A program made the position numbers and the translations under genes. A stretch of 60,932 nt of DNA, the filler included, from Hausera hauseri (lineage: Eukaryota): NCBI GenBank assembly GCA_046269625.1. It is 12 parts of 12 records of this genome, joined end to end, with 100 filler letters (N's around TTAATTAATTAA, not from the genome) between each part and the next. Parts side by side here need not be neighbours in the genome. Positions count along the whole stretch, not along the records: positions 40,996 to 45,792 come from JBJURY010432915.1; 11 more parts are not named here. One strand, written 5' to 3'. How positions within the stretch are numbered: the stretch's first letter is position 1; each line of letters starts with the position of its first letter. Of the stretch, positions 6,770 to 56,499 are shown in pieces. The notes beneath the pieces are model-generated. The model saw nothing but the letters and a program-made list of their open reading frames with translations, was not told the origin of the DNA and did not search any database.

Positions 6770-7152
6770 ACAATAATGTCTGTAATGTAAGCCACAATAG
6801 GAAGTAATGTCCACACAATACGGTAAGTGGATGTTGATAATCAAGTCGATTATATTCAACACGATATGATTGTCCTTCAATTTGAGAAATCGAATACCTT
6901 TCATCGAATACCTTGACGACGGTCGGATGTACTTATTCCGCAATCCAATGTTCGCCCGGTAACGATGAACTGTGTGTATTAATGATAAAATCTCCGCCAC
7001 CATTTTGTCGTAAGTCACGCGGCACACGGCCCAGTGAAAACACCGCGGAATTTCACACCGAAGAGCAGTTTTCCATAGTGACTGAGTTCAGTTGAGCTAA
7101 ACGTAAAACGTGATTTAATCACAATAGTAATAATGGTAATAAATTACTCCAT
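6770..7152 (-). pseudogene. Adenain-like cysteine (maturation) protease of Polinton
   Basis: Manual translation (not in the ORF track): DFIINTHSSSLPGEHWIA*..KVFD...YQHPLTVLCGHY, giving the His, Asp, Gln and Cys catalytic motifs, immediately downstream of the capsid gene. Confidence 0.8.
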
Positions 7153-7183
7153 GGTGCTACGACGGTGAGACAGCGGATTTTAT

Positions 7184-7800: not shown

Positions 7801-7803
7801 AAT

Positions 7804-8796: not shown

Positions 8797-8931
8797 CGTT
8801 GTCGTCGATGGTGTCGGATTTGCTGCATGCATTACAATAATGTGAACGAAACGTAAATGAAAGATTCGGTAAACTGGGACAGAAAGATGAAAACCATGCA
8901 TCCATATCTCTAAATAATCATATACTTACCG

Positions 8932-9310
8932 TCATTGTTTATGGTATGATGCTGCTGTAGAACCAATGAGTCTACGCAGTAATGACGTGACAATCGATAG
9001 AATTGCACCAAGGAATCCGCAGTCTTGCAGGTACATAACCTCTCGTTTCAGTCGTTTGCTACGGGCATTGGCAAGACCAATGAGTCGTTTTCGATACTTT
9101 AGTAAATTTTGCTTTCCACTACCAAGGTTAATGTGACCCACAACGATATTGTATAAAATTTCCATAAATCCTCTACTACAAATTGCGGGGATGATCGCAG
9201 CATGTTTCGCTTATATCTCGTAGGTGCCTTAAGCAAAGCAATAAAATACGACTGACTACGTTTGAATCACATTTTTGTGGACGTATTGATGCTGATGAGA
9301 TGTAGTTGTT
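8932..9310 (-). pseudogene. Polinton small protein with a GG|F plus amphipathic-helix tail (adenovirus pX-like)
   Basis: QDCGFLGAILSIVTSLL; paralog of 13731-14065 and 45143-45529. Confidence 0.65.
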
Positions 9311-9665
9311 TATAACCGTTGTCACTGACGGTAATGTGTTTAGTTGCAGCTGCTGTTGTTCGAAGCACAGAATTGATTAATCGCTTGACTGTAGAGGTTC
9401 GTTTTGATACGTTTCTTGCCGGACGCCCTCTAGGTAGGTTTACGTTTAACAGTTGTTTTTCAGAAATTCTTCATTTTATCACTATGATGTCGATTTTTGA
9501 ATTTGTTTATAGACACACACCTTTCTGATTGAAAATGTCTGTTCGTACACGCATGTCATCGGGACNNNNNNNNNNNNNNNNNNNNNNNNNNNNNNNNNNN
9601 NNNNNNNNNTTAATTAATTAANNNNNNNNNNNNNNNNNNNNNNNNNNNNNNNNNNNNNNNNNNNN

Positions 9666-9739
<74 letters not shown>

Positions 9740-9750
9740 ATGTTGGTGAT
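9666..9750. repeat. (TGA/CAT)n microsatellite
   Basis: About 25 TGA units at the contig start. Confidence 0.95.
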
Positions 9751-9754
9751 GACG

Positions 9755-10727
9755 ACGACGTAAATGTAGCACCAAATTTGTCTTTGCTGGAAACATAAAT
9801 TTAATTGATTTCCAAAATTCCTCTACTATATACTAGGAAATACTGTGCACAACATTGCGGGGCAACGACAAATACATTTACCGGATGATATTTACTTGAG
9901 CACTTTTGCACGGTGTTATGTACGTTTCCAAATCTAATCCAATAGAAGCCGATAATTGTTTACTTCAGCGCCAATATATACGGTTTCGGTTAAACCCATT
10001 AAAATATTGATTCGACGAAATGCTTCATAGAGACGTTGTTTGTGTTTAGCAACACGGGTAGTCCGCCGGTTTGACCGAATTCTCGTTTTATAAACCCAGT
10101 TTTCGTGGCAATAGTTCATCAAAGGCAAAATGTGTAACATTATCATGTATTGTAAACGAAATACGATCATCAGAATTTAATTCAAATGCTTTGAGAGAGA
10201 ATTTAGACACTGCTTTGATGGTTGCACACAATTCTGCTTCCGTTTCCCTAAGAAAACCAGTTCCTGTTGTATGATTGTTAAAGAATGATTCAGTGTTTTG
10301 CCAATTCAGTGTAATATCGGTGGTTTTTATGGTGTTTTTGGAAAAGTTCAATTTTTCACTAATTATACTATATCCACTGGGCTATAGACCTTTCGGGCGC
10401 ACACTGACAGATTGAAAACCCCATGCTCGACCGTTGGTTATTGATTTAAATTGCGATTCAGTTGGATGTTTATGTCTTAGTACCAATCAGTTGTTTAAAT
10501 GAAAAATATAAACCAGGAAATATTGCCGCTTGTAATTGCGAACGTGAAATGTTCCATTAGAGTCTCGGCCTAACTAGAAACGGCTACATGCAGGAAATTT
10601 TCTTACCAAAGTATAGTATATTCCACTTTTCTCACGTATTGTTATTGGTGAAAATATAAATGCGAATTTAACCAGAGCCACTTCCCAGGCTCCCTGGCGT
10701 AAATCGAACGGCTGGCCTAACGCCATG
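9755..10727 (-). pseudogene. Polinton minor capsid (penton-like) copy 3, N-terminally truncated
   Basis: LGQPFDLRQGAWEVAL near the start and VLHLRRR at the end; close nucleotide paralog of 11515-12578. Confidence 0.75.
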
Positions 10728-10729
10728 AT

Positions 10730-11458
10730 TTCTCGCAACCATAATTTCAACCATGTTTTTACTGAAGAAATTTGAATCGAAATATTTTAAGTATAAATTC
10801 GGGCACAAACCTCCAACAAAATTTCAACCACATCCTTATTCAATTCGAATGTGACGTAGGCATTTGTATTTGACGTGAAAGCCTTAAATATATCTTTGTA
10901 CCTATTAAACGAATTGTCGATAGAGATCTAGTACAGATTCACAATAGACATTATCGCCTATTGATACATCTGATGCAGACACCCTTTGTCCAGTAATGGC
11001 AAATTTCACCGATCTGTCGTAAAATATTGGACTGAGTCTTGGGGCAACTTCGTAATTACAAGAAACAACCATGCCTTTGAGCTCTGTATTTTTGAATCAA
11101 AATTTTTGCGCCATTTCATTTGACTCGAAGCTGACAGTAAATTCACGTTTTTAATCAAACACTACTTTCCCCTGCAGAAGATAACACGGATTATACCGTT
11201 ATGTACGTCATTATTTATGTTTCTCGTGCAAATGAAAGAGTTTGCGACAGACAGTATATTATTAGTAAGTGTCAGACGATAGGAATGTGATTTCGTTTCA
11301 GTAACAGTCTTGTTGTACGATATTTTTATACTACCTTTCAATGTCACCATTGCATAGGGAAAGATAAATTCCGTCAGTGTAACCTCCCAATCCACAGCGT
11401 ATTTACTGGCCCAATTGTTTGGAAAAGTAGTCGGAAAACTATAGCTCGGTAACACCAT
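10730..11458 (-). pseudogene. Polinton minor capsid (penton-like) copy 2, divergent and C-terminally truncated
   Basis: MVLPSYSFPTTFPNNWASKY..DWEVTLTEFIFP matches the penton N-terminal pattern LPS...P.N..S.....WEVAL.E..FP. Confidence 0.65.
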
Positions 11459-11514
11459 CTCATTATCTTGATGATGATGCTAATGATGATAGTGATGACA
11501 CAGTTTGTTTATTA

Positions 11515-12578
11515 TAGACGACGGCGACGACGAAAATGTTGCATCAAATGTATCTTGGCTCAAAACAGAAATTTAATGGGTTTCCAGAATTCATCTGCTA
11601 TATACACGGAAATACTGTCCACAACATTATGAGACAACGATAAATACATGTGCCGGATAATATTTACGTGAGCACTTTTGCCCGATGATTTGTACGTGTC
11701 CAAATCCAGTCCAATAAAAGCCAATAGTTGTTTACGGTTTCCGTCAAGATATACGTGTTCGGCTAGATCCATTAAAATATTGATTAGACGAAATGCTTCA
11801 TAGAGACGTTGTGTTTAGCAACAATGGGCCGTCCGCCACCAGGTTTAACAAATTATCGTTTCTTAAAGCCCCGATTCCATAACAATAGTTCATTAAAGAA
11901 AAATATGTAACATTATCATGTAGTGTAACTGAAATACGACCATCAGAGTTTAATTCAAATGCCTTGAGAGAGAATTTAGCTTCTGCCTTGATGGTTGCAC
12001 ACAATTATGTTTCCGTTTCCCTAAGAAAACCAGTTCCTGTTGTATGATGGTAAAAGAATGATTCAGTCTTTTGCCAATTCAGTGTAATATCGGTGGTTTT
12101 CATAATGTTTTCCGAAAAGTTCAATTTTTCACTATTCATACTATGCATACCGAGCTGTAGACCTTTAGAGCGCACATTAACAGATTGAAAACCCCATACC
12201 TCAGCGTCGGTTAGTGATTTAAATTGCAATTCAATTGGATGTTTGTGTTTTAGCATCAATCGATTGTTTAAGTGGAAAATATAAACCGGGAAATATTGCT
12301 TCTTGTAAGTGTGAACGTGAAATGTTACATTAGAGTCTCGGACTAACTGCAAACAACTAAATGAAGGAGATTGTCTTAATATAGTATATTCCACTGTTCT
12401 TACGTGCTGTTATTGGTGAAGCTGTAAATGTAGATTCTGCCAAAGCCACTTTGCGGGCTCGCTGAAGTAAATCGACCAGTTGGTCCAAGTGTATGGTAAA
12501 ATGTTTAGCGTTGTTGTCATTGTCGTTATGTTGTGATAATGACCTGTTACTATCAAGTACCAAATAAATGCTCATCAC
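11515..12578 (-). pseudogene. Polinton minor capsid (penton-like) copy 1
   Basis: IYLVLDSNRS...NNAKHFTIHLDQ...KVALAE at the N-terminus; QLLAFI...MYLSL..VDSISVYIADEF.KPIKF at the C-terminus. Confidence 0.8.
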
Positions 12579-12579
12579 T

Positions 12580-13589
12580 CAATCTGCGATGCAAATATCA
12601 AAGTCGAAGTAATGTATCCATGCCACTTGACGAGGTATTGTTTATTCGAACCTTTGCCGCGTGAACTTAGAATTACCTTGAATACGATACACATAAGGTT
12701 TTTCCAGTAGTACTTTCAGTTCCAGTTCGTAAAATTTGCCAAGGTTTTCGTTACCATTTTTATCGTCTAAAACGTGCATAACAGATGTTTTATGATAATT
12801 GCTGAAATTCGGAAACCTTATCGCTCCAGTTCTAATTGAAATTTTTAATCAATGGTGTCGTACTCAGTTTCGAAATACCTATATGATAACCGATTTTATA
12901 CTTGAAACGTTTAGTCGGCCGTCGTCGTCGTTATATTTGGTTTTTGTAAAGCCACATGTCTATATCATCGGTTAAATCAACCGGCCGTAATCTATTGATG
13001 CCACGATGTGTCAAATGGTTGTATGCATGTATAATATCCAGTTGTACATCTACCCAACGTTTATTGCCCTGCTTGGTAAGGAATTTGGTTAGTCGACCGC
13101 GTAAGGTTCGATTTAATCGTTCAATGAGTACAGCTTTGTTTTGCGAAAACAACGATATGTGGTTTACACCAAACCGCCTCAAAACCAATGCGACATGGGT
13201 GTTGTAAAATTTTTTACCCAAATCCGTTTATACATGTTTCGGTGGTTGTTGTTCTATTAATGTGTAATCAGCATCGGCAATATCTTTACCGGATTCAGAT
13301 TTGACAGCTATTGCACCTGCAAAACGACTAAACACATCAATACTCATCAGCACGTACCAATATAAATCGTTAATACTGGCACACACAATCAATTCCATCA
13401 GATAAATTTGTCCTGCAAAACGGTATGCACGACTTGGAAACCGTTCTTTTATCTGTTTGTTTAAGCTGTATGATAACTGTTTCCCCAGCCAACGTTGGGT
13501 TTGTCGCCGAGTCTGTTTGACAGTCTTTGCCAATTTGTCGACGCATGTATACACGACGGGATGACGCGGTCGAACTACACGTCGCCCAT
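12580..13589 (-). pseudogene. Polinton integrase with chromodomain
   Basis: YVLMSIDVFSRFA, KAVLIERLNRTL, NWSDKVSE and a KWHGY-type chromodomain end. Confidence 0.9.
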
Positions 13590-13730
13590 CGTTGCCGTCG
13601 GTGTTGTCGATAAAATCGTTTTTGTCAGCATTACAGAAATTAGAACGAAACGTTAATGAAAAATTCGGCAAATTGGGACAAAATAATGAAAACCATGCAC
13701 AAATATCGCCAAATCATCATATACTTACCG

Positions 13731-14065
13731 TCATTGTTTATAGTAAACTGTTCCACAAATCAATCCACCCAGTAATGACGTGACAGTCGTAGAATTGCAC
13801 CAAGGAATCCGCCATCTTCATGAGATATGACCTCTCGTTTTAATCGTTTACTACGAGCGCTGGCAAGGCCAGTGAGTCGTTTTTGATACTTTAGTAAATT
13901 CCGCTTTCCACTACCAATGTCAACGTGACCCACAACGATATTGTAAAAAATTTCCATAAAATCGTCTACTACAAATTGCGGGAATGATCGCAGCGTGTTC
14001 CGTTTATGTCTCGACGGTGCTTTAAGAAACGAAATAAAGTACGGTTGACAAAGTTTGAAACGCAT
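13731..14065 (-). pseudogene. pX-like small Polinton protein
   Basis: EDGGFLGAIL followed by a frameshifted hydrophobic tail. Confidence 0.65.
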
Positions 14066-14125
14066 GATTAAATAAATGAGTAAAAGAATGAATCGAATCG
14101 TAGTTGTTTGTAATCGTTGCCACCT

Positions 14126-14295
14126 TTACGGTAACCTGCGTCTCTTTACTGCTGCTGTTGTTGTACAAAGCACTGGATTGATCAATCGTTTAACTTTAGC
14201 GTTGCGTTTTAATGTATTCGACGCACGTTTCTGCTTCTTCTTAGATAGCTGTTTGGTTGGTTCGCATTTAACAACTGTTTTTTGGAAATTCTTCA
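14126..14295 (-). CDS. Small K/R-rich protein, putative genome-condensing core protein
   Basis: MKNFQKTVVKCEPTKQLSKKKQKRASNTLKRNAKVKR...KRRRLP; present at the same position in three Polinton copies. Confidence 0.5.
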
Positions 14296-14306
14296 TTTTA
14301 CTACTA

Positions 14307-14880
14307 CTATCCTGCTGATTTTCGAATTTGCTTATAGACATGTACACCTTTCTGATTGAAAATATCTGTTCGTACACGCATGTCATCTGAACACTGTTGT
14401 ATAAAGTCAATAAACAGATATCCATGCTGTTTGTGCGTAGCATCATGATATGTATCTATCAAGTGGACTCGGTTATAAGGAAATGCTTGTCGTGCAACAT
14501 AATCAATGATGGTATGATCATGGAAATTTTTGAACAACACCAAATAGTCCACGTTTAGATTTCTTGTTCAATGCTGTCCGCCCTGATGGAACATGTTTTA
14601 CGTAGTGAAAATAACCGTCACACCACGGTGCTGTGCAATCTTCGTAAACAAGTTGGTGAAATCCGATTATTTCGAAGCTTCCTGAAATAAATCGTCGATG
14701 ACAATAACGTCACCGTTGCATGGTCTTTCTGACCAGTTCTCATGAAACCCATCAATTACCGTTATCGATTTCAGTTTACAAAATTCCCGTTGCGTCAAAC
14801 CGAACTCACCATCATCACCAACACCATGATGCCAGTATATATGATTATACCTCGGTGAATGGAACATGTCACAGTAGTTG
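14307..14880 (-). pseudogene. Polinton packaging ATPase (A32/FtsK-like), Walker A region missing
   Basis: VIVIDDLFQE (Walker B), YLVLFKN, GYLFID and RVRTDIF. Confidence 0.88.
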
Positions 14881-14918
14881 TAACTATATTGTAACTATAT
14901 AACGTACAATTTTCATAT

Positions 14919-15150
14919 TGTGTGTGTGTGTGTGAGACACTAGATAACAGTATAAGGTACAATTCGTGTGTGTGTGTCACACTAGATTACTGTATAAGAT
15001 ACCATTCGTGTGTGTGTGCGTTTTTTTATGCGATTTTTGGCGTTTTCGGCCGGCGCTTCGCGCTGCGTTTCGAATAGGGGGGCTGGTGATGCACTGCTTA
15101 GGTGATGCGCTTATTAGGTGATGCGCTTATTAGGTGATGCATATATAAGC
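14919..15150. repeat. Short tandem repeats: two ~42-bp (GT)n-containing units, then four 16-bp GGTGATGCGCTTATTA-type units
   Basis: GGTGATGC recurs at 15085, 15101, 15117 and 15133. CACTAGAT..GTATAAG..ATTCGTGTGTG occurs twice in 14938-15018. Confidence 0.85.
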
Positions 15151-16329
15151 GGCGCTNNNNNNNNNNNNNNNNNNNNNNNNNNNNNNNNNNNNNNNNNNNN
15201 TTAATTAATTAANNNNNNNNNNNNNNNNNNNNNNNNNNNNNNNNNNNNNNNNNNNNAATGAATAGCATGACTAAGGGCCGTGTCAACCAATTTGCATTTT
15301 TGTATGATAACACACCGACCAATATAAGTCAATCTTCATGGTGGTATTTTTTCAAAAAGGCTTCAAGACTACCGAATTTTTGAAAAGGAAAATGAGTAAT
15401 GTAAAAATGCTACGTTTTGCCCAGGAATTAATGTACAGCTGTAACCAAAGTACAGTGTTCTGTGTTCCGAATCCTTGTTGCCTAGAACTGTACTTGAAGT
15501 ACTATCTTCGTGTAAGTATTTGGCTAATTGTAGAAAAGTTAAATGTTCAGACGGCCAGCCTATTTGCGAAACAGGTGCAGACAAATTATTCAAGATGACG
15601 AAAGCAAAACAGAAACCAGAAGCTCGCATCGGTTTAACTGATTCTGAGGAAGATGAATTTCCGATTTACACACACGAGACGAAGAAAAATCTGATTCTGT
15701 ATTTCCAAGACCTCAAAGAAACGTGATTAACAGCAAGATATGAAAATTATGTGGTGTATAGATTCAGAGATTTTGACGAATCCGAAGATGTATAATTGAT
15801 TTCGAATAATATTTTTAAAATTATATCTCGTGAAATAAAAATTTGTTTCAAAAATCTGTATTAAACCAATTATATTTAATTTCAAGTGAGTTTCACTCAT
15901 CAGTCTTTGTTACGGAGTGACTGTTGTACCAGTACGACGACACATTTTGTCACCACATATTAGGTAGATCTTTTTAAGCGAAGTGAATTTTTTAATTTAG
16001 GGTCAATTTTCTGATGGATTTCTCTCCGTCTTTCATAATAGTAAATTTATTATTATAATCCTAGTTAAGTAGACAATTAAATCAGTTGCATATTAGATTT
16101 TGTTTCAATTTCGTATGCACGTTTCAATTTGCAAATTATTATTTGTACGTTAATTCTTACGCTACTAATTACCATTGTTGTTTTTAAACATAACATAAGC
16201 GATTAACAATTTTTGTGTTTATACAATTAAAAGTACATTTGACCTTATTGATAGTGACTGGCTGAGACAAAATCTTATTTTGTTTTCATTTTCAAGAATT
16301 GGCTAATGATTGTTACTTGCACTATGAAA

Positions 16330-30694: not shown

Positions 30695-33605
30695 TATTAT
30701 TGAAGAAATATTGAGTTATAGAGTGGGAATTGAGGGAAATACTGGCATTGATTCAACATATTATAATGTGAAAATAAGTGGGGAGAAGATTGTCGATGAC
30801 GCACGTTCAGAGCGGCAATATTTAGTGAAATGGAGGGGGTGGAGTCACATTCATGCTTCGTGGGAATCTGAATCCAGTTTATCTCTTTATCAATATCTCG
30901 ATGGAATGAAGAAATTTTACAAATACAAGGAAGTTCAAAAGGTTAGAGAAAATTGGAAAAAGAATTATGCGTCACCAGAGGATCTCGATGCAGCACAGTT
31001 TGAAGAAGAGCGAAACGAAGTTTTATTACAGCAGAAAATGGAATGTGAAAGGATAATCGATGTCCAACGAAACAAGAATTCAGATTCACTGGATTATCTG
31101 ATCAAATGGAAAACCATTGATTATCGGTATTCAACATGGGAATCTGGGGATGACATTGTCAAACCTCTTTTTCCCGATGCCATTAAGATGTTTGAGGAAC
31201 GCAGTCGGTCTGGATTGATTCCGAATAGAAAATCTGAAGTTTGGTCCAAACGACCAAAATTCACACCGATGCGTGAACAGCCCACTTTCCTTAGTCACAA
31301 TTCCGATTTGATTCTGAGGGATTACCAGTTGGATGGAATGAATTGGTTGGCACGAGCGTGGACGAGAGGAAACAGTGTCATTTTAGCTGATGAAATGGGG
31401 CTCGGGAAAACTATTCAAACGATAAGTTTTCTCGTTTATTTATTCAATTAACATCATATGTACGGTCCATCCTTATTGGTCATTCCATTTAGTATTATTG
31501 GAAATTGGCAGACGGAATTTTCATTATGGGCTCCATACATGAATGTAATTGTATATACAGGTGACACTGTATCTCGTCAAGTAATTAGGGAATGCGAGTG
31601 GTATTTTCCGAAGAAAAAAATGCTCAAATTTCATGTTTGTATCACAACATACGAGCTGCTATTGAAAGATAAGGCATGGTTGAATAAGACTAATTGGGCG
31701 TTCTTAGGGGTTAATGAGGCACATCGATTAAAAAATGACGGAAGTCAGTTATATCAGGCGCTGTTTACTTTCGATACAAACACTCGACTATTAATTACAG
31801 GTACTCCAGTTCATAATTCACTAAAAGAGTTATGGGCTTTGTTATATTTTATTATGCCCGATAAGTTTGATATCTGGGAGGACTTCGAAGACAGATACAA
31901 TTTGACCAATGAAAACTGTTCTGTTGGGGAAATAAATCACGAACTATACAAAGTTCCAGAACCGTTTCTATTGCGAAGAACAAAGAAGGACGTCGAGAAA
32001 TCGTTACCATCTAAAAGTGAACAGATTATAAGAGTGCCAATGTGCCGAAAACAAGCGGACTTATATAAATTAATCTTGACCAAAAATTTTGAAGCTTTTT
32101 CGCGTGAAACGAGAGGTCATACGTCAACATTTCTTAATGTTGTTGTCGAATTAAAAAGTGTTGTAATCATGTTCAATTGGTAAATCCATTGGATGAAGAA
32201 ACAGAACAGAAAATGGATCTTGAAAGTAGGTTAAGGTATTTTATAAAATCCAGTGGTAAAATAATGCTGTTGGATAAACTGCTTTTTGAGCTAAAGGATA
32301 AAGGCCATCGTGTACTTATATTCAGTCAGATGGTCAGAATACTGGATATTATTTCAGATTACTTATTGCTACGTGGTTGGGGGTTTCAGAGACTTGATGG
32401 GTCGATTAAAGGTAGTCTTAGGAAACAAGCTATTGATCATTTCAATGCTGAAGGTTCGACTGACTTTTGCTTTTTACTTTCAACTAGAGCCGGTGGTTTG
32501 GGTATTAATCTAGCAACAGCTGATATAGTTATAATTTTTGATTCTGATTGGAATCCACTGAATGATGTGCAAGCCATGGCTAGAGCTCATCGCATAGGAC
32601 AGACTAAACAGGTTTCGGTGTATAGAATTATAATAAAAAATTCAGTTGAAGAAAAGATTATTGAATGCGCAAAGAGGAAAATGGTCCTAGATCATTTAGT
32701 TATTCAAAGAATGGATAGTGCTTTGCACAGAAAGACTGATGCAAACAAAAATCAGCCATTCAATAAAGACGAATTAAACGAAATTTTAAAGTTTGGTGCC
32801 GCAGATTTATTTAATCAGGATGAATCTATGGACGAAGAGCAAGAATTAAATATTCAGGATATTCTTCAACGGGCTGAAACGAGAGATAACGACGAAGTAG
32901 CTAATAATCCAGCCAATGAGTTACTTTCAGCATTTAAAGTGGTTAATATAACCGAAAATGTTGAAGATGAAGATATTGTCTACATTGGTCATAAAGGAAA
33001 ATCAAAATTATGGAGTGAAATAGTTCCTCAAGAATTTCGGGAGGAAATCAAGGATGAAAAACATCAAATACATTGTTATAACTTGAGTTGGGTCCAAGGC
33101 AACGAAAAAAGGTAAAAGCATATCAAGTAGGTCAACCAGATTCTAGTAGTGATGAAAGTTCCGAGAGTAGTATTAAAGAAGTTACAAAAATGACTCAAAA
33201 AGAGACTAGGCCAATTATAAGAGTTATGAAAAAATTTCCTCGGCCTTTGGAAAGGATCCAGGCAATCATGGTAGAAGCTGAAATTCTTGAAAGGAGCGAA
33301 AGAGAAATCTATGAAACTATGAAGCATATAATTGATGGATGTCAACAAGTAATAAACGATTGTGATTCTGAGGAAAAGAAAAATAAGGTTACATTTAATA
33401 TTGGACGGATAAGTATTTCTGCTAAATCATTTCTACAGTGTATAGAATATTTAGATATTTTGCATACAGTTGTGCCATTAAGCAAAGAAGAGTGTCTAGC
33501 ATACAGGTTACCATTTGAATCCAAACTGGCTAATTGGTCCTGCATATGGGAAACAGAAGACGATGCAAAGTTACTAGTCGGTGTTTATGAACGTGGTATG
33601 GAACA
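30695..33605 (+). pseudogene. CHD1: CHD1/2-type chromatin remodeller, intron-free, disrupted and 3'-truncated
   Basis: Tandem chromodomains ([27 protein letters not shown]), [15 protein letters not shown] changed to [46 protein letters not shown] at 31449 and frameshifts near 32155 and 33070. Confidence 0.92.
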
Positions 33606-33828
33606 GATTAGGAGGCCCTTCAATCTCGAAACTGTTTTCCAACAGCTGCTAACATACTTGAGTCAGTTACTCCAGTCCTAAGCCAGTGGCCAGAAGAATA
33701 ATGCTGAAGCCTTTTTGTGGACGATTAGCTGCGTTGTTAAATATATGAATAGCGAATCGGCTGATAATGCTGCCATTCTGGAGGATTCGCTCACGAACAT
33801 CAAGACTGGCGACAATCTGATCGGTAAG

Positions 33829-40574: not shown

Positions 40575-41279
40575 GAGAACTAAATAATTAAATTTACAGT
40601 ACATATTATAAATGCATGTATTGACATGCTTCAAAAACAAAAAAAATAAAATTAGAAATAAAAAAGTATGAGCCTTAAAACTGGCATCTTTTCATCGTGA
40701 ATATTTAAACAAAAATAAAAGTTTCGCATTCTGGTACTCGTACAATATTTCCAATCTAACTGACCATTTCGAGATACTTAAAAGTTGATGTTATTTTTGA
40801 AACTAACCCGAATTATCATGATGCTTTGAGCACTCTCTACCCAAGAGTGTTTAATTGCATCAGCACAATCCTACAGCATGACAAAACTCCAACTCNNNNN
40901 NNNNNNNNNNNNNNNNNNNNNNNNNNNNNNNNNNNNNNNTTAATTAATTAANNNNNNNNNNNNNNNNNNNNNNNNNNNNNNNNNNNNNNNNNNNNATACA
41001 ACCGGGAATTTCTGAGCGAATATTCGCTGTACTGTGGCTTTTTGAGAGACTCGCGAAGTGTCACCTGCTGAATTGTTTTCCAAAGATATTTTGTAAATAA
41101 GACAAACGTGAAAAGAAACTGCATCCATACTTATATCAAATTTGTTTATACCGGTTTGTTTTCATTGTAAACAATAGACATTTACATTGTGAGTATTGTC
41201 TTGTATCACATTGATACAAATTACTTCCACGTCATTGAAGCCCCTGACACTGTTTCGTTCCGTTATTGACGAAGTCATT

Positions 41280-41745
41280 TATAATAAATGTGTATAATTT
41301 CCATTATAACACATTTACATTCTGCACATTGGTGGGTTAATTTGGTGGAACACATTTAACAAACAACGAGATGGCCGCATATTAAGAATTCTGTATCCAC
41401 TTTTCTTTGCTTACATAGTACACGCATAAACGGACAGTCTCATACTTTGTCCATTATTTTTTCTTTCAAGTTCGTTAATTCACCGCGTATTTTTTCAACA
41501 GTATTAAAGTAATTTGTGTCGTACAATCGGTGAATGTACATTTGATTTAACATAATAATTAGATTATCTATACAGCTACAATCTGTTGCTGTCATCAATG
41601 CAATTGACGCTAAACCTTTAAATCCCAAATCACCTTTTGGTCTCGCAACCATTTCACTATCAAGCACTTTCCACCATCGTATCAAATATAGAATTGGTAA
41701 TCCATCAAAATTTTTCAATTACTTCAGTTGATTAACTATTTCCAT
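41280..41745 (-). pseudogene. C-terminal RING finger (IAP/MDM2-like) E3 ligase
   Basis: In frame after ORF 41440..41718: M(R)VLCKQRKVDTEFLICGHLVVC*MCSTKLTHQCAECK. TATAAATA at 41770-41777 upstream. Confidence 0.7.
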
Positions 41746-41855
41746 GATGATTATTATTATTACTACCTGTATTTATAGTTTTTGAATTATTCAACTGACC
41801 AATACGGCGGACCTTATTTACGGAAACAAAAAACGAAACAGAGAAATACATTTAT

Positions 41856-42330
41856 TTATTTGCATGAAATATAGTCAATACAAAGCCGTATACATTTTTT
41901 GTAAGCACAATTCGGTCCATGATCACGATACGGACATTTAATTTTGTGACGTATTATCGCCAGCGATCTGTTCGATGTTGAATACGTCGTCATTCGCAAC
42001 TCGGAAAACTGTGAATGTAGTTGTGTAAACTTTTGTCCGTCAACTTGATCTCTAATGTAAAATATTGCATTTTCAACATCAAAACGATAACAAATGTCTC
42101 GCATGATACATGATACGCAAAATGTTCCAATAAAGTCCATGACAACATCGTATGTGATATCCATTGTTATATTTCGCTTTTTCTGTAAACCGATTCCACA
42201 TTACAGCGGGCTTGAATACATACACAAGCGGTTTGAAAATGTTACTGACGTTCATAATTCATAATTCCTTTATTATGTACTGGGCATTATCATGTTGGAA
42301 AGCTTTAATATCTATAAATCCTGCCGCCAT
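41856..42330 (-). pseudogene. DnaQ-fold nuclease-like protein with an E..C..H..C motif
   Basis: Manual translation MAAGFIDIKAF...IIKEL*I...YVFKP...HGLYWN, then a frameshift into ...CPYRDHGPNCAYKKC. Confidence 0.55.
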
Positions 42331-42386
42331 TTTTTTTATAACACAAACAAAACAACTAACTATTATTATTATTATTATCACAATCA

Positions 42387-42857
42387 TTAAACATAGGTGG
42401 TTTTATCCATATCACCAAAGCCAAATTCTTTGAGTTTATTTTGCATCGATTGATTGATACAAAACAGTCTCCATTGTTCCAGTGACATAACACTGAATTC
42501 CGCTTCTTCACAGTGAAGAAAAACGATTTGTGCGATTGCACTGCATTTCGAAAAAGCATACGGTTCGCTGGATTGGTTCTCCAGCAACACCTTAATTTCA
42601 CCACGAAAATCTGAATCAATGACGCCTCCCATAACCGTCAGTCCCAGCTTCGCCAGTCCACTTTTCGATAAAAGTTGGCCGTAGTAACCGGGTGGAATCG
42701 CCAATCGAATCTCAGTCGTTATGCATTTGATTGTACTGTCCGGAATTGTCGTATTGACATTGGAAAACACATCGTAGCATGCACTGTTTGCTGTAACACG
42801 TCTTGGTACAAAAATATTTTCATCTGTTAAGATAATCTTTACATTATTCATTACCAT
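42387..42857 (-). CDS. dut: dUTPase (trimeric type)
   Basis: ACYDV, KSGLA, GVIDSDFRGEI, AIAQ and a C-terminal GFG (motifs 1-5); frame open. Confidence 0.9.
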   Translation of the reverse strand: MVMNNVKIILTDENIFVPRRVTANSACYDVFSNVNTTIPDSTIKCITTEIRLAIPPGYYGQLLSKSGLAKLGLTVMGGVIDSDFRGEIKVLLENQSSEPYAFSKCSAIAQIVFLHCEEAEFSVMSLEQWRLFCINQSMQNKLKEFGFGDMDKTTYV

Positions 42858-42999
42858 TATTCTTATTCCTATACCAATATTAAAATTAAAAATATATTTA
42901 TACTCGTTAATTGGGTTGATGAAAGAAGAACAAAGATAAAACAAAACAAAACAACACTCAATAATACTTATGGTAATTAAAATGTACTTCAGCTACACA

Positions 43000-43610
43000 C
43001 TAAATCGGGCTTCTTATACCGGCTTTTTCCTTGTATCCTTGCAATTCAGTGTTCAGTCGACACTTAAAATCATCATCGGCTGCATTAAAAATTTTGTGGC
43101 CAATAAAATCAAACAATTTCGTTTTCTGAGCCGGTAAAACGGCAGAGTGCTGTTGCACGATCGTTTCGTTCAACATTAAATCCATGTGTAATTGATGTAG
43201 AGCATCAGAGAGTTTATTCAAATATTCACCCGAAAGCCATTGTCCACGATATCTGTACTTGGGTGCGCATAGAGACACGGAATCACTCAGTGAAATCAGT
43301 ACGGACGTTTGAGGAAAATGCATTTCATACTTGCGAAAAATTCGTTTCGGTAAAAATGTTTGTGTTTGGCGCGACGGTTTTGATTTTCGTTTATGTATGC
43401 CAATCATTGATTTTGCCTTTTTAACGTCGATTTTGCTGTTGCTGATGATTTTTGAGCAAGTTCCTGTTTCGTTTCCAGACAATCGACATCATAATTGCCC
43501 TGCAGACTATCGCCATTAGAATTATTATACGGTTTTTCTAATTGTGGGACAGGTTTTGCTTTCGGTTCTAGAAATTTGACATTAGATTTGTCCTTTTTGT
43601 AGCCAAACAA
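43000..43610 (-). pseudogene. Unknown Polinton accessory protein
   Basis: Frameshift-linked ORFs 43404..43610 and 43000..43482 between the TBP-like gene and dUTPase. Confidence 0.4.
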
Positions 43611-43769
43611 TCACGACCAATCTGAACTTTCATCATTCTCACAACCACAATCATCATGATCATCATTGAGCAGAATCGTTTTGTCGTCGTTTTCCATGGC
43701 AGTAATGTCTGAATGAGCATGGTATTGATATTTATAGTTTGTCTTTGTTGTGTAGAGTACATTATTTTG

Positions 43770-44227
43770 ATTCACTAAAACATTTATGTGGTTTTTAATT
43801 TGATTAATAATCGGTTCATAGTCCACTGTTCGAATACCGAGTACAACAATTTTTCCACTGTTAAACATATTGACAAAAGTGGGCAAAACAATGTGAGTCT
43901 TAGTGCAGGAAACAGTTCGAGTTCATATGTACATTCAGTGGCCATTGATAATTTGTACATATTAATTGATGGACAGTCAAACTGAGTCGTTATCGTTATT
44001 GATTGAATTTGGTCAATGATAATTCGGAATAGCAGTAGTTTATTGTTACTGTCATCTGTGATTTGTTTGCGACAACCTATAATACGACACTTTTCTGATT
44101 GAAATATGATGCATGTAAAATCCGGTGGACACTTGTGTACATACTGCCTCGGCTTCCATTGATTAAAAGGTAGTGTGTTAATATCACACTCGGTAACATG
44201 TCCGCGATAGTTGATATTAGCTAACAT
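43770..44227 (-). pseudogene. Divergent TATA-box-binding protein (TBP)-like gene, one frameshift
   Basis: Two TBP repeats: NINYRG..TCIIFQSEKCRIIG and IQSITIT..INMYKL..YELELFPAL..VNMFNSGKIVVLG, compared with canonical TALIFSSGKMVCTG, YEPELFPGL and LIFVSGKVVLTG. Confidence 0.8.
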
Positions 44228-44329
44228 TATGGAACCAGCGTTTTACTGTAGCTATTTATATGCGTGTAACACGATTACAAACAAATCATGTAATGAGGAA
44301 AGGTTGTATTATTATTATTACTTTTATTA

Positions 44330-44970
44330 GATGAAGCCATTTTCAAGATTGTAGGCCCCAGTGGAAGTGGAAGAACACTTTCTGTGTAAATTATTGCAGA
44401 ACTACCGTGACATGTTCCATTCACCGCGGTACAATCACATATACTGACATCAGGATGTTGGTGATGATGGTGAGTCCGGTTTGACACAAGGGGAATTTTG
44501 TAAACTGAAATCGATAACGGTAATTGATGGGTTTGATCAGTACTGGTCAGAGATTACGCGACGATAACATTATTGTCATTGACGATTTATTTCAAAAAAC
44601 AACGAAACAATCGGACTTCAACAACCTGTTCACGAAGATTGCACGGCACCGTGGTGTGACAGCTATTTTCATTACACAAAACATGTTCCATTAGGGCGGA
44701 CAACATCGAACAAGAAATCTAAACGTACACTATTTGGTGTTTTTCATAAATCTCCGTGATCAGACTATCATTTATTATGTTGCACGACAAGCATTTCCTC
44801 ACAATCGAGCCTACTTGATAGATGCATATCATGATGCTACGACCGAGCCACACGGATACTTGTTTATCAACTTTACACAACAGTGTCCCGATGACATGCG
44901 TGTACGAACAGACATTTTCAATCAGGTTGGTGTATGTGTCTATAAACAAATTCGAAAATCGACGACATGA
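44330..44970 (+). pseudogene. Polinton packaging ATPase
   Basis: IVGPSGSGRT (Walker A), IVIDDLF (Walker B), ARHRGVTAIFITQN and GYLFIN. Confidence 0.9.
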
Positions 44971-45142
44971 TTATGATGAAAATGAAGAATTTCCGAAAAA
45001 CGATTGTTAAACGTAAACCTACAAAGCGGATGTCCGGCAAGAAACGTGTATCAAGACGAACCACTACAGTCAAACGAATAATTAATTTTTTGCTTCGAAC
45101 AACAGATGCTAGACGCAAATTACCGTCACAGTGGCAACGGTT

Positions 45143-45529
45143 ATGAACAACTACAACTCATCAGCAGCATCAATACGTTCACAAAAAAGCATGCGATTCA
45201 AGCGTAGTCAGCCGTACTTTATTGCCTTGCTCAAAGCACCTACGAGGCATAAACGAAACATGCTGCGGTCATTCCCGCAATTTGTAGTAGGCGATTTGAT
45301 GGAAATTTTATACAATATCGTTGTGGGTCACGTTGACATTTGTAGTGGAAACCTGAATTTACTAAAGTATCGAAAACGATTCATTGGCCTTGCCAACGCC
45401 CGTAGTAAACGACTGAAACGGGAGGTCATGTACCTGCAAGACGGCGGATTCCTTGGTGCAATTCTACCGCTTGTCACGTCATTATTGGGTGGTCTCATCG
45501 GTACTGCAGCAGCACAGTATAAACAATAA
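45143..45529 (+). CDS. pX-like Polinton protein (open copy)
   Basis: Ends LQDGGFLGAILPLVTSLLGGLIG; preceded by a K/R-rich small ORF at 44967-45130. Confidence 0.7.
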   Translation: MNNYNSSAASIRSQKSMRFKRSQPYFIALLKAPTRHKRNMLRSFPQFVVGDLMEILYNIVVGHVDICSGNLNLLKYRKRFIGLANARSKRLKREVMYLQDGGFLGAILPLVTSLLGGLIGTAAAQYKQ

Positions 45530-45642
45530 CGGTAAGTATATGGTAATTTAGCAATATGGGTGCATGGTTTTCATCTTTCTGTCCCAGTTTACCGAATCTT
45601 TCATTTACGTTTCGTTCTAAACCGACAGCATTTACGGTAACG

Positions 45643-45792
45643 ATGGGCGACGTGTGGTTTGACCCACGTCATCCCGTCGGGTATACTGTCGTCCACAAAC
45701 TGGCAGACTGTCAAACATACTCGGCAACAGACCAAACTTTGGATCGGGAAACAGTTAGCATACAGCCTAAACAAACCGATAAGAATGCGGTT
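45643..45792 (+). pseudogene. Polinton integrase N-terminus
   Basis: MGDVWFDPRHPVGYT, as in contigs 2 and 3. Confidence 0.8.
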
Positions 45793-50891: not shown

Positions 50892-51189
50892 NNNNNNNNN
50901 NNNNNNNNNNNNNNNNNNNNNNNNNNNNNNNNNNNTTAATTAATTAANNNNNNNNNNNNNNNNNNNNNNNNNNNNNNNNNNNNNNNNNNNNTCTCTGCAA
51001 ACGTTTTCAGGTGAACATGAAGGTCAGTATTCTTTGGTATAGTTTTCTTTTGCAGAAACTCTTTGATTTGCTTATCGTCTCATCATCGTGTTGTTTTTGT
51101 AACATCAATTTTTCTTGTTTGGTTATACTCCAGATGGCTGCTATTACACCTGGTTTATACGTTATTTCTTCTTTTTGATCCATTTATTC

Positions 51190-53503
51190 AGGTATTCTTG
51201 ACAAAATCAGCATTTGCGTTGGCCTTACCAGCTTTTTACTCAAACTTTAAGTCGTAGGGCTGAAGTATCATTGCCCATTTCATTAAACGGATATTTGGGT
51301 TCTNNNNNNNNNNTATGATTTTTCAACCACTGTAGCAATTTGTGGTCAGTGTAGAGGACGATTGGTTTAGTTTCCGACAAGTACTATCAGTACTGTTCCA
51401 ACGCATATACTATTGCGAGTAATTCCCTTTCGATCGTGGAAGTTTTTCTCGTGTTTTCTTAACTATCTGCCACCAAACGATATTGGGTGTTCCTGTCATT
51501 GATCGTTTTTTTGTGATAGGACAACTACAATTCCAACTTTACTCGCATCTGTAGCTAAGAAATATGACTTCGACATATTTGGATAAGCCAATATTGGTGG
51601 AGCTAATAATTTATCCTTTAACTGTTGGAACGCTTTTTGACATTCTTGGGTCCAAACGAGTTTAAAGTTTTCTTGTAATAAGGAATGGAACAGAAAGGAT
51701 ATCTGTTGGTAGCCTTTAAAGAATTTTCGATATCCTGTAAGACCGAGGAACTTTCGAACTCGCTTAACTGTTTTCGGGACTGGAAAATCTTGTATTTTAT
51801 TTATTTTTCAAATCTGAGGACTAATGTCTTCGCTGCTTACAGTATGTCCTAAAAATCAACTTTGGTTCTGGCAAAACAACATTTCTTTAAAGTTATTTTT
51901 ATGCCAAGAAGGGCACACCTCTCTAACATATCTTTGAGGTGTTCTTTATGTTGTTCATAGTCACTGGAAGCGATTGACATCATCCACCTAAAACATTATA
52001 CGTGGAACGTCCATCGTTATTATATCCATGGCTGTTTGAAATGTTGCCGGAGAATTTTTCATTCCGAATGCCATTCGGTTAAATTTGTAATGCCCATCTG
52101 CGGTCACGAAAGATGTTTTCTGTTTATCTTCTTCTTGTACTTCTATCGGCCAGAAACGTTTTTATAAATCTAACGTGGTAAATAACATTTTATCTTTCAA
52201 TTTATCCAATAATTCGTCAATTCAAGGTAGTGGATAGATATTGTCTATTGTTACCTCCTTAAGGGCACGGTAAACCATATACATTCTGATAGATCCATCC
52301 TTCTTCCGTACCATTACAATTAGAGCTGCGCATGGAGAATTACTGGGTGTAATTATATCGTGTTTTCTCATTTCAGCTATTATTTCTTTTGATTTTTCTC
52401 TTATCATAATTGAGCCGATATGGCCTCTTTTTAGTAGGGGTTTCTATCCCGGCCTTTAAGTTAATCTCATGTTTAATAACGGGTATTATACCCATGTCAT
52501 ATTCGTCAATAGCTAAGGTATCTTTGTATTGTAATATTTTAATTATGCCTTCTTTTTCAGCATCTGTCAATGTGCTATCCTTACCGAACAAGTCATAATC
52601 GTTCCAGTTAATATGAACGATTAAGAAATTTTATTTTATTATTTTATTAAGATGACTTTTCAACTTATTCATTTGTTTATCTTATAATCCTATTCCTCCT
52701 TCTGTTCTCGGTTTATGTCGTTGCCTTTCCATGAATTCAGACAATTTTTCTACAGTAGAGATAGTAGCTTCCGTTGCGTTATTGCATGTATCTTTTATAT
52801 TATATACATAGGCGATTCTTGTTCCTTTTCTAAGCAACTTAAATTTATTAGAAGCATTAACTATTCGAACAATCACTTGTTGTTCTCGAATGTTATCAAT
52901 TGTATGAGCTAACCATAGCTCATTCTTGTACATGAAGGTTATGTTTGGTTCAATATAAACATCTCCTTTATCTTGACCTTCTACCAAAGCTTTGAGCACA
53001 ATCTCCGTTCTAGCTGGTATTAGCACGTCTTCCTTAATGGCCACTGTGTCCTTTTTCTCATTCTTTGTTTTTCGATATGGCTGGATTTGTTCAGTCTCCA
53101 AGTGTATACACATATCTTTTAATTTTTCTAACGCGTCACATCCGAGTATAGCTGCAGCCACCAATTCGTCGACTATTCTGAATTCCTGTTCCAATTTTTG
53201 GTTAAAAACTTTTGTCTCGCATTTGATTAGATCCTTTACTTGTACTCTAGTTCCAAAATCTCCAACATTTGTAATGTCTTCCGTGGGTTTTTGTAACTTT
53301 TTCTTCAGTTGTTCTGACAGTTGTTTACGTGGGATCATTGAGGCAGATGCACCGGTGTCGATTATAGCTGTAATAGGATATCCATCTATCCAAATTACCG
53401 TTCTCGGAATTACCTTACCTCCTTCTATACTAATTATTAGAGCGTCTTTTGGAGCTGATGGATAAAACATCAGCTTTACATGTTTTGTATCATAATTATC
53501 CAT
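51190..53503 (-). pseudogene. pol: Ty3/Gypsy pol: aspartic protease, RT, RNase H
   Basis: AIIDTGASAS, SNSPCAALIVMVRKKDGSIR, YPLP, RMAFGMKNSPATFQ, *VDD (YxDD), ATDASKVG, ERELLAIV and YTDHK. Confidence 0.93.
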
Positions 53504-53759
53504 ATCGCGTGAGCAATGTATATCTATATATTCATTGCGAGGTATAAAATGTCATTGTTCTATTGGGTATTTACTCCACTTCCTCATTAGTAGGATATCT
53601 GATAACAATGTTCTCCTCTTTTTACTTCGGGCGGTAATCAGACTCCATGTCTTTTTATTATTTTCTACTGGTTTAAGTCTTCTATCGTTTATCTTCTTTA
53701 CTGGAGGTTTATCCTCATCATTATTTCCGTCTTCCTCATTCTTATTGTTATTTTCTGTT

Positions 53760-55610
53760 CCCATTCTGCATCCTTTTTATCAAAAAGCAACTGGCTGTGG
53801 ATGGAATCAGTGCATAAGTAATTTTCCATGTACAACCAGCGGCTTGTTTAATAACACATATCCCTTAGTTATCATGGTAAGAATTGCTTTAATAAAGGCA
53901 AAGATGTAGTAAAATCCTAGCCATCCAGCATTAAACTGACCGAACCACATGTACCATCCCCATGCGGTTGCAAATATATTTTTAGCTATTTTCTTTGAGT
54001 AGTCAGGTCCCATCAAATTTTCCCAGTTAGCTTTCCCGGTGTGATCAGATAACACTTTCATTGCCATCTCCGTTAGAATTTTCTGTCTCTGTTGAGGGAA
54101 CATCATCCTTCTGTGATTTTCCATATCTTTCTCAGAGTACACGCCCGTCTTTACTAGATGTGTTAATGGCTTATACGTTTGTTCAGTTTTTAAATTAATC
54201 AAACTAATTCTCCGAGGTGGAGTAATCTGCTCCTTTTTCGGCATCCTTATCTACAAGTTGTCACTTAGTCAAAATGCTGGCGACATAGTATATGTACAAT
54301 TTTGATGAACATATGGTTTTTCTGCCGGATCCAGTAGTATCCGTGTGATTGGTTGTAAGAAACGCGGCTTTTCCTTGTACCAATCAGGTAACTCCATAGT
54401 ACAGTCAATAGTTGGTCTTAATTTGACAGCTATTTTCGTACACTCGAAAGTTATGAAAGTTTCACCCATCGTTCGAGCGAACTTTCCTTCTGCATCGAGT
54501 GATTGAGATGGACCTTTTATTATTTTATCCGTTATTGCTGACAAATATATCCGATTTCTAATTATTTCCTTATTCAATTTATATTCGTTTAATATTATCT
54601 CTCGACACAGCATAGATATTTTCTTGCTGGAAGTGATAAATAAAATCAATCTTGTTATCGAAATAGAGTCGAGGTTTCACTTCTGATTTATCAATCTTCC
54701 TCTTAGCTTTTATTATTTCTGTTGTGGATAGAAATACCCTTTACAATTTGTTCGAAATACTGTGTGATCACATATCCTGGTATCGCTTTCCAGTTTAAAT
54801 CTCATTCCATCTTGGGGATTTGCTGAATATATTATGGTCGGAGTCTCCATCATATCCGATACTCGGTCTAGTCTGCTCTTAAATATTTCTTCTTTATACA
54901 TTCGTCCTTTTGTTTCATTAAACTTTCCCATTTTTAATAAAGCTAACCGACGCTGATCCCTATCGACTTCGTATGACATAATTGATTCGCTCGTGTCACA
55001 TTCTTTATTATAATAATCACATTCAGGGAATGTCATCATTTTCCCTGAGGATAATTCGAAGAGGGCATAGTATTCTCTCAGCTCAACTTGATAATCTTCA
55101 ATGGCCACTATATTGTCTAAAATTTCGCCATTAATATTGTAGGACTCGACCTTACAATATCCTGTTTTATCAACTGTCTCAGCCGCAAAAATTCTTTTAT
55201 TAATAATTTTTCCTTTCTGAGCCTTGAACCGAATATTCCCAATATTAATATGTTTTGTTACAAAAGCCACTATACACATTCACGTACTTATAGGGAGTGG
55301 CTCGAACGGAGTAATCGGTTCAACTATTTCTGAATTTCGGTACCAATATCCGCAAATAAGGTGAAAGTGATTTTTTTGAACGAAACATTCTTTCACTTTA
55401 GTTTTCACAAATTCCAACTCTTGATAAACGTAGTATTCCTTTTCCGATATTGTAGTTAGTGACGCCGGATTGGTAAATGGACATTTTGCTAAGTTTAGTA
55501 AGGAATATATTGGACCTTCCTTAACTTGACGACAATCGTAAGCAATGATTGAAAGTGCTTTTGATATCAGACTAAGCAGGAGGAGTATAGGTATAACTTT
55601 AGTTAGCCAT
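53760..55610 (-). pseudogene. env: Chuvirus-like class III envelope glycoprotein
   Basis: Signal VIPILLLLSLISKALS then IIAYDC..YSLLNLAKC; MGE...ECTK..V.LRPT.DCTMELP..FLQPITRIL; TGVYSEKDM..HRRMMFP; TM FGQFNAGWLGFYYIFAFIKAILTMITKGY. Cys-rich, about 600 codons. Confidence 0.8.
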
Positions 55611-55619
55611 GATAAATCG

Positions 55620-56499
55620 AGATCTGGTTTTGGGTTTCGCTGGCTTTCTGCTTGTTGGGGTGGATGATATTCTATTCGTTGTTGTGCAATTGGAGCCGAT
55701 TCATGTATTGCTGTATGAACCAAACTGGTAATCCATCCACCTCTGCATTTTACCCATCTTTCGACACTGGATTTTAAGGCTCTTGTAGCGATTTCTATAT
55801 TTCTCTCTATCTCTTTCTAGTTCGGATTTACACCATTTATCACCATTATCTAATATAAGGGATCGGATATTGCTGTCACGATTTTATTTCGGGATATACC
55901 GGTTCCCATCATTCTAGATAATATATCTCTTTCCTGTACCTCATTTATCCTCTCATCCGTAGGGATATCTGCAAATTGTTCACTAATCTTCGCGATCTCA
56001 TTCTTTATAGCTTGCATTAACGAATCCAGTATTTGTAGATTAGTATTGAACTCAACGAATGCAGTATGCGTTCTTGCTAGCAAGGTTTGTAGTAATGTTG
56101 TCAATGATACATTATCTACGTCATATTCATCTTCCGTTGTTAGCAGTCTTAGAACAACTTCGTTGTCTCTGGCTTTCCTGCCTTTCAACTAATAAAGTTT
56201 CGTTGTTCCTTTTGGTCTACCACGGTTTCTTTTATCGGTTTGTATTTGTTCTGATATAGGCATATTCATCCCAACTTTCACTTGTTGAGCCTGATATCGA
56301 TGTTCAGATTCTTGTATTTCTTTTTGCATAACATCAATAATAATTTCGTCAATTACTTCTTGTTCAGTCTGTCTATAAGTAATACACACAGGATTGTATC
56401 GGTTTTCCTAGATACCTGCTTCATATAGAGGTTCATAATCCATCAACGTTCGTCCATAAAAGCGTAACTCTAATTCTCCTTGAGATTGATTTATTTCAT
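55620..56499 (-). pseudogene. Unknown in-frame region upstream of env, with AT-hook-like KRNRGRPKG
   Basis: ORFs 56189..56389, 55850..56188 and 55280..55723 share one frame, separated only by stops; RGRP at 56213-56224. Confidence 0.55.

Follow-up and report, generated by a model that had tools for sequence, protein, structure and literature searches.

Polintons encode a reduced TATA-binding protein and carry a candidate private promoter word

Polintons related to a decayed element in Hausera hauseri encode a small protein with a TATA-binding protein (TBP) fold, termed mini-TBP here, together with an enriched promoter word, TATAAACA, ahead of their virion genes. Taking gene content, residue pattern and promoter words together, we consider it fairly probable that mini-TBP serves as the Polinton's own promoter factor, such that host TBP would read the early boxes and mini-TBP would then read TATAAACA via host TFIIB. 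The window analysed, a stretch of 60,932 nucleotides from assembly GCA_046269625.1, contains one copy of the gene, which is a pseudogene; the pattern described below comes mostly from its intact relatives.

A decayed copy in a repeated Polinton family

The window is made up of 12 joined contigs of ~5 kb with artificial N44-TTAATTAATTAA-N44 linkers between them, so that only positions 40996-45792 form one continuous piece around the TBP-like gene and adjacency across the linkers need not reflect the genome. All 30 bins of this contig are covered by contigs of two public runs (35,538 and 1,801 pieces), which marks the contig as one member of a repeated family in which the TBP gene is a regular part. 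Judging by its gene content, an animal host is likely. Neither end of the element, where terminal inverted repeats and a 6-bp target duplication would be expected, lies inside the contig. Reading from the left, the minus-strand genes are a RING gene in broken form, an accessory ORF disrupted by a frameshift, a dUTPase, short acidic ORFs and, last, the TBP-like gene; the plus-strand genes that follow are an A32-like ATPase, likewise broken, a pair of small ORFs and an rve integrase of which only the start is present (Table 1). The ATPase and the integrase start are Polinton marks, and the 4.8 kb hold no PolB, capsid or protease gene; homologues of these genes are found on other contigs of the window, as are fuller copies of the rve integrase (7801-8790 and 12596-13575).

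Table 1. Features of the contig at 40996-45792, in window coordinates; L004 is an outside Polinton locus used for comparison.
Feature	Position	Strand	Evidence
TATAAACA box, then short ORF at contig end	41143..41150	-	motif scan
RING-finger gene with internal stops	41280..41745 (end approximate)	-	zf-C3HC4_3, E 3.6e-4, under cut-off; translation
TATAAATA upstream of RING gene	41770-41777	-	motif scan
Accessory ORF, frameshifted, homologue of L004:9591-10052; presumably DEDD-exonuclease-like (by eye)	41871..42330	-	tblastn E 2e-15, two frames; no Pfam match
dUTPase, frame intact	42390..42857	-	PF00692, E 1.2e-22
TATAAATA upstream of dUTPase	42895-42902	-	motif scan
TATAAATA upstream of short acidic ORF (at 43700)	43729..43736	-	motif scan
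Mini-TBP pseudogene, piece 2: last strands and helix H2'	43770..43876	-	Pfam, family profile, tblastn, translation
Mini-TBP pseudogene, piece 1: N-lobe without helices, plus first half of C-lobe including stirrup	43877..44227	-	Pfam, profile
TATAAATA, canonical TATA box 33 nt upstream of TBP ATG	44253..44260	-	motif scan
TATAAACA box with one mismatch, upstream of ATPase	44276..44283	+	read directly; excluded from exact counts
A32-like packaging ATPase, three frames, no recognisable start codon	44330..44961	+	match to L004 ATPase by tblastn, E 1.9e-65, in frames 2/3/1; weak Pox_A32 match
TATAAACA box upstream of small basic ORF (~44970)	44941..44948	+	motif scan
TATAAACA box with one mismatch, upstream of conserved small membrane-active-type ORF	45142..45149	+	motif scan
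Conserved virion-module ORF, homologue of L004:4167-4505; which we take to be 'cupiennin-like'	45191..45526	+	tblastn 36%, E 9e-20; no Pfam match
TATAAACA box, 38 nt upstream of ORF leading into integrase	45518..45525	+	motif scan
rve integrase start, cut off by contig end	45725..45790	+	tblastn E 5e-4

The TBP-like gene occupies 43770-44227 on the minus strand, starting at 44227, and is interrupted by one frameshift near 43876. The earlier note had described an intronless gene without N-terminal extension, in which both TBP repeats can be recognised across a frameshift near 43880, and each of these points holds: the two repeats are recovered as two Pfam and profile pieces, no intron is present, and residue 1 of the structural model described below aligns to yeast residue 66. 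Piece 1 comprises 117 residues (44227-43877), and piece 2 runs from about 43883 down to 43770 in a frame that stays open without a stop to 43614. They score 21.4 and 14.5 bits against the Pfam TBP model, both under the curated cut-off of 22.9, and match a profile of intact family members with E-values of 2.8e-35 and 2.2e-09, respectively. Piece 1 shares 74% identity with the intact relatives P0002 and P0003 (4 matches among 5 candidates), and a phmmer search of this piece alone against the PDB gave no match (best E 0.89). Near-invariant positions were taken as those that at least 90% of the family share and that align to the window copy; four of these 31 are altered, one of them within the stirrup. 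The frameshift and these four changes identify the window copy as a decayed pseudogene inside a decayed element, from which the protein cannot be made.

The head-to-head arrangement with the ATPase, also pointed out before, exists at this locus, where the ATPase start lies ~90-105 nt off on the other strand, although the ATPase itself is broken over three frames. Elsewhere the arrangement is not kept: the two genes are divergent with three genes between them in locus L001, in tandem with one gene between them in L004, and 4.7 kb apart in L027. A conserved head-to-head TBP-ATPase pair, found in none of these three outside lineages, was rejected.

The same Polinton family has left two further decayed copies in the window, with 79-83% DNA identity, at 4717-9565 and 9666-15156. 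In the second of these, the 5' end of the ATPase is cut, and short repeats stand where the TBP gene would be; this may be a rearranged end. Separate contigs carry a pair of decayed genes for protein-primed PolB with ~30% identity to the PolB of L004 (18400-20800 and 23000-25200). In addition, the window contains an apparently intronless gene with a chromodomain and an SNF2 helicase, CHD1-like by eye and split over several ORFs (30695-33681), and a Gypsy-type element on the minus strand with an envelope-like ORF set, again by eye (50992-56499). The Polintons also bear ubiquitin tools, namely an E2 conjugating enzyme at L004:225-719 and the RING gene of the window (41280-41745).

Family, predicted fold and residue pattern

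The loci with enough flank, L001, L002-L004 and L027, are all Polintons and represent three independent outside lineages, L002 and L003 sharing that of L004, so that the Polinton link extends beyond the window locus; the remaining eight close loci are too short for element assignment. L004 carries TBP, ATPase, integrase, two penton-like ORFs, a pX-like and a hexon-like ORF and PolB, L027 carries PolB, ATPase, integrase, capsid-type ORFs, protease and TBP, and L001 carries TBP and ATPase. Pfam recognises Pox_A32 and rve in both L004 and L027, DNA_pol_B_2 in L004 and Peptidase_C5 in L027; the capsid genes of the two loci, which lack Pfam matches, are labelled presumptively from synteny and recall. 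L027, a contig comprising a nearly complete Polinton, was filed under a bacterial metagenome-assembled genome and is probably mis-binned eukaryotic viral DNA.

Profile search yielded 464 proteins at E<=1e-5 among 3,150 candidates, and the best 120 of the 464 matches are mostly 144-160 residues long and all contain PF00352. The Polinton/adintovirus-specific TBP family comprises over 100 clusters; a representative library gave 283 proteins at E<=1e-10, canonical TBPs among them. Family members are encoded by 12 close loci among 21 metagenome loci and by one of 36 genome-collection loci, whereas scans of IMG/VR gave no mini-TBP locus, their 77 pattern matches including five giant-virus-type TBPs. 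Intact relatives reach 59-67 Pfam bits against the cut-off of 22.9, which P0002 and P0003 also pass, and show two Pfam stretches.

Phylogenetic placement was assessed with a quick 106-row tree, for which 11 fragments or fusions were dropped, 30 random and 10 fixed mini-TBP rows were used, and 18 archaeal rows were kept. The family and its longer relatives form one side of a branch with SH-aLRT support of 99, separate from the sampled eukaryotic, archaeal and giant-virus-type TBPs, and the window piece clusters with P0002 and P0003 (support 98). The TBP-like gene thus falls outside the cellular TBPs sampled, in a tree that has long branches and in which no row was recognised as the TBP or TRF of the host or as a named animal TBP. 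Four rows pattern-labelled 'other' sit within the family clade and are mislabelled members, and the giant-virus-like rows L022, L023 and L026 lie outside it. Values of dN/dS from 0.13 to 0.25 in all six pairs among L007-L010 show that the family is under purifying selection. Other comparisons are uninformative or saturated: L005 and L006 are near-identical (no synonymous and two non-synonymous changes), the value of 0.35 for L005/L006 against L011 comes from only nine changes, and L001-L004 is saturated.

Longer relatives of 160-190 residues (P0245, P0250, P0254, P0262, P0266, P0267, P0276 and others) share the rewired DNA-face signature described below but have longer N-lobe spacers (42-49 and 28-29 residues) and branch outside the mini clade; these helix-retaining proteins are likely intermediates. 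Separately, L020:674-1204 and L021:193-726 encode divergent full-length TBPs of 177-178 residues with canonical spacers, possibly a second, independent capture of TBP by a mobile element; the neighbour of the L020 gene resembles by eye the Polinton exonuclease-like accessory ORF.

AlphaFold2 predicted the intact P0003 as a saddle over residues 1-149, with a pLDDT of 96.4 from a 119-row alignment; from 14 near-identical rows the pLDDT was 39. Structural similarity search revealed that the model resembles solved TBPs, with a Z-score of 13.9 and an RMSD of 2.5 Å over 146 residues, compared to a best non-TBP Z-score of 6.5. The top matches by Foldseek and VIA-align are TBP throughout, and the matches listed in the PDB at E<=0.001, at least 44, are all TBP. 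The model begins at strand 1 and has a complete C-lobe, whereas its N-lobe consists of strands without any helix before residue 61. The N-lobe spacers are correspondingly short, with 36 residues where canonical TBP has 47 for H1, and 20 where it has 33 for H2 (11 and 13 shorter; medians from 110 and 112 of the 119 family rows against four canonical rows). As modelled, helices H1 and H2 of the N-lobe are absent from the mini-TBP family.

The two stirrup glutamates of the C-lobe are kept in 115 and 118 of the 119 family rows. Of the four intercalating phenylalanines, whose conservation had been in question, three are kept, at the positions of F116 (118/119), F190 (118/119) and F207 (119/119), but the first, F99, is replaced family-wide by proline (118/119). 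The DNA face is further rewired by seven near-invariant swaps to polar or otherwise changed residues, V71 to Asn (115), V122 to Arg (118), T124 to Met (119), N159 to Ser (116), I194 to Arg (117), V203 to Cys (119) and L205 to Asn (119 of 119 rows); yeast numbers other than I194, V203 and L205 are our own mapping onto the family columns. These last three positions are the ones altered in yeast TBPm3, which reads TGTA (PMC1636458). According to PMC7221094, TFIIA, TAF1, Brf1/2, Mot1/BTAF1 and NC2 dock on the N-lobe, where the basic patch is formed mostly by H2, and TFIIB binds two glutamates of the C-lobe. Judged from the model, the family drops the regulator-docking surface of the N-lobe and keeps the glutamates that bind TFIIB.

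Altogether, mini-TBP shares with cellular TBP (PF00352; 1ytb, 1cdw, 1mp9/2z8u) the two-repeat saddle, both stirrup glutamates, three phenylalanines and the asparagine of strand 1. It differs in its length of ~149 residues, the modelled absence of H1 and H2, the proline in place of the first phenylalanine, the seven DNA-face swaps, an identity of only 20-28% and its separate clade.

Promoter words and the proposed switch

The word TATAAATA, to which the earlier note had drawn attention, is indeed present on the minus strand at 44253-44260 and 41770-41777, 24-25 nt from the respective ATGs, and in the contig it precedes the TBP, acidic, dUTPase and RING genes. As a private motif of the element it was rejected, being an ordinary TATA box found before only one of 20 virion-module genes. 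It is the canonical U6-type TATA box selected by wild-type TBP (PMC1636458), and the copy at 44253..44260 is likely an early promoter read by host TBP.

The enriched word is instead TATAAACA, the top 8-mer in a de novo search. L004 has 10 copies of it where 1.85 are expected, a count reached in none of 200 shuffles. Counted on the sense strand within 120 nt upstream of starts, it precedes 15 of 20 virion-module genes in four elements (L004 6/8, L027 6/7, L001 1/1, window 2/4), against a random-window background of 0.029-0.052; the binomial p of 4e-16 overstates independence because the counted elements share ancestry. The two misses in the window carry one-mismatch versions: that at 44276..44283 appears to be a decayed TATAAACA box, and that at 45142..45149 is matched by an exact box at 9307-9314 in a sister copy. 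TBP-bearing loci contain 28 sites; downstream of 26 of these an ORF follows within 130 nt, and 14 are placed 32-40 nt before the ATG.

Nine sites lie within genes. Three to four of them retain the word despite codon-usage odds of 0.018-0.045 each; the other five read Tyr-Lys-Gln, where codon usage alone keeps the word at ~0.58. The box before the hexon gene falls in one reading frame in L004 and in another in L027, a sign that the DNA sequence itself is constrained. We regard TATAAACA as a candidate private promoter signal of TBP-bearing Polintons. It is not purely 'late', since it also precedes seven of 23 accessory starts. No TBP start is preceded by it (0/7); in L004, an acidic ORF with the box ends 1 nt before the TBP gene, which may thus be transcribed from that box.

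These patterns would fit a switch operated by one protein and one word. Host TBP would first read the ordinary boxes (TATAAATA, TATATA) ahead of the genes for mini-TBP and accessory proteins. Mini-TBP would then bind TATAAACA through its rewired, more polar DNA face. The N-lobe of TBP sits over the 3' half of the TATA box, and the polar N-lobe face of mini-TBP may accept the C at position 7; the model leaves unexplained that the box keeps A at base pair 2, which is faced by the swaps at the TBPm3 positions. The stirrup glutamates would recruit host TFIIB and Pol II, and the protein, with no helices in its N-lobe, would evade or be indifferent to TFIIA, TAF1, Brf and Mot1/BTAF1, the last of which evicts TBP. 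In this way, the ATPase, integrase, penton, pX, hexon and protease genes would be switched on. As no TFIIB gene is found among the scanned ORFs of L004 and L027 and the glutamates are kept, host TFIIB is the likely partner. DNA binding, TFIIB use and timing, and with them the redirection of Pol II, are presumptive functions of mini-TBP. The earlier idea of a private TBP for late genes survives in this form: a late-gene role is the best reading of the family, but the window copy cannot make the protein.

It is also possible, though we judge it unlikely, that TATAAACA is a real promoter word read by the host, either weakly by its TBP or by a forkhead-type factor, and that mini-TBP bends or coats viral DNA during replication or packaging. 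Forkhead sites follow the consensus RYAAAYA, which TATAAACA fits; however, the other form, GTAAACA, is not enriched, with zero to three copies per TBP-bearing element. Host TBP can bind TATAAAC, given that crystals of wild-type TBP on a box variant with C(-25) exist (PDB 1qn3, by its title). TATAAAC further precedes two of eight virion genes in the TBP-less L063, and TATAAACA itself is shared by accessory genes. Against a host-read box speak its strict sense orientation and 32-40 nt spacing, and its presence before only one of 15 virion-module genes in contigs without a detectable TBP (L063 0/8; L064 1/7, 7 nt from the ATG), a comparison in which lineage and TBP presence are confounded because these two controls, obtained from IMG/VR scans, are the only ones and both distant (ATPase 37%), possibly incomplete. 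Moreover, a purely architectural protein would have no need of a near-invariant TFIIB stirrup.

A decoy role appears more doubtful still. Here mini-TBP would tie up host TFIIB (or Brf1/Brf2) or host TATA boxes and thereby dampen host transcription, the box being independent of it. A protein that keeps the stirrup glutamates, loses the coactivator-binding helices and lacks one intercalating phenylalanine could act in this manner, but its DNA face is near-invariant with new residues rather than degenerate, and a matching non-canonical box tracks its gene.

There is little likelihood that mini-TBP reads all TATAAAYA boxes without an early/late split, or that it feeds Pol III via Brf factors. All seven TATAAAYA sites of the window contig are in gene-sense orientation, yet the words partition among genes, TATAAACA preceding 15/20 virion and 0/7 TBP genes and TATAAATA 1/20 virion genes. 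For Pol III, the stirrup also serves Brf1/Brf2 (PMC7221094) and TATAAATA corresponds to the U6 box (PMC1636458), whereas the N-lobe surface gripped by Brf factors is deleted in mini-TBP, and long AT-rich protein genes with T runs would suit Pol II. Finally, a chance retrocopy of host TBP decaying at the window locus, as its frameshift and broken neighbours might suggest, is scarcely credible in view of over 100 clusters of intact relatives in their own clade, their residence in other Polintons under purifying selection, and the fact that both public runs cover the gene's bins as they do the other parts of the element.

Comparison with known systems and implications

The preferred reading, a Polinton promoter factor with its own word, has its closest functional parallel in the herpesvirus vTBPs (KSHV ORF24, EBV BcRF1, HCMV UL87) and their TATT promoters. 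Both are TBP-fold factors of nuclear DNA viruses with a polar-rich DNA face, as described for vTBP in PMC12529657, and in both a variant TATA word precedes late genes, TATT in herpesviruses and, by analogy only, TATAAACA in Polintons. However, ORF24 is a large multidomain protein that is part of a six-member viral complex and binds Pol II directly, whereas mini-TBP is a bare saddle of 149 residues. A section title of PMC12529657 states that ORF24 is incompatible with TFIIB binding; mini-TBP, unlike ORF24, keeps the TFIIB stirrup. The structural match to herpesvirus vTBP is weak (BcRF1, E 3.5e-3). By analogy, the Polinton system most likely works like vTBP/TATT without being a member of the vTBP family.

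The TBP-like proteins found in giant viruses (Nucleocytoviricota) and in mirusviruses are likewise viral TBP folds that have lost the eukaryotic N-lobe signature, and the best viral structural match of the model is the TBP of Heterosigma akashiwo virus (E 4.2e-8, 15% identity). According to PMC7221094, giant-virus TBPs have lost that signature and diverged at the adapter-binding positions, and usually come with their own TFIIB. By contrast, the glutamates of mini-TBP are near-invariant, and the scanned ORFs of L004 and L027 include no TFIIB.

MELD viruses whose PolB is adintovirus-like have carried a 'TBP' gene label before (Starrett et al. 2021, PMC8502044, Fig. 5; preprint 10.1101/697771, Figs 5-6). 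It stands as a legend abbreviation in a section on non-animal datasets and marks a TBP-similar gene on at least one Polinton-related element; the accessible parts of the paper describe no family, structure or promoter, and one supplement gave no match. This gene may belong to the mini-TBP family. In the mostly open-access literature searched, we found no description of the family, the missing helices or the box.

We give about even chances to the fuller picture, in which a large, probably animal-infecting Polinton lineage has an orthogonal early-to-late switch built on the smallest TBP-fold factor seen here, one that would be immune to host TBP regulators, read TATAAACA, borrow host TFIIB and have an origin separate from that of herpesvirus vTBP, with helix-retaining intermediates surviving today. 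Its value lies in the family, as the window's own copy is dead. The mini-TBP can be assayed alone, and represents a natural deletion experiment on TBP, in which a minimal initiator keeps the DNA face and the TFIIB stirrup but drops both N-lobe helices. Mini-TBP and its box also suggest an orthogonal TBP-promoter pair for synthetic biology. Two open questions are touched, namely how Polinton capsid genes are timed and whether animal Polintons are true viruses. If the switch of one protein and one word is true, both would become testable, and the box would mark the late regulon in any genome.
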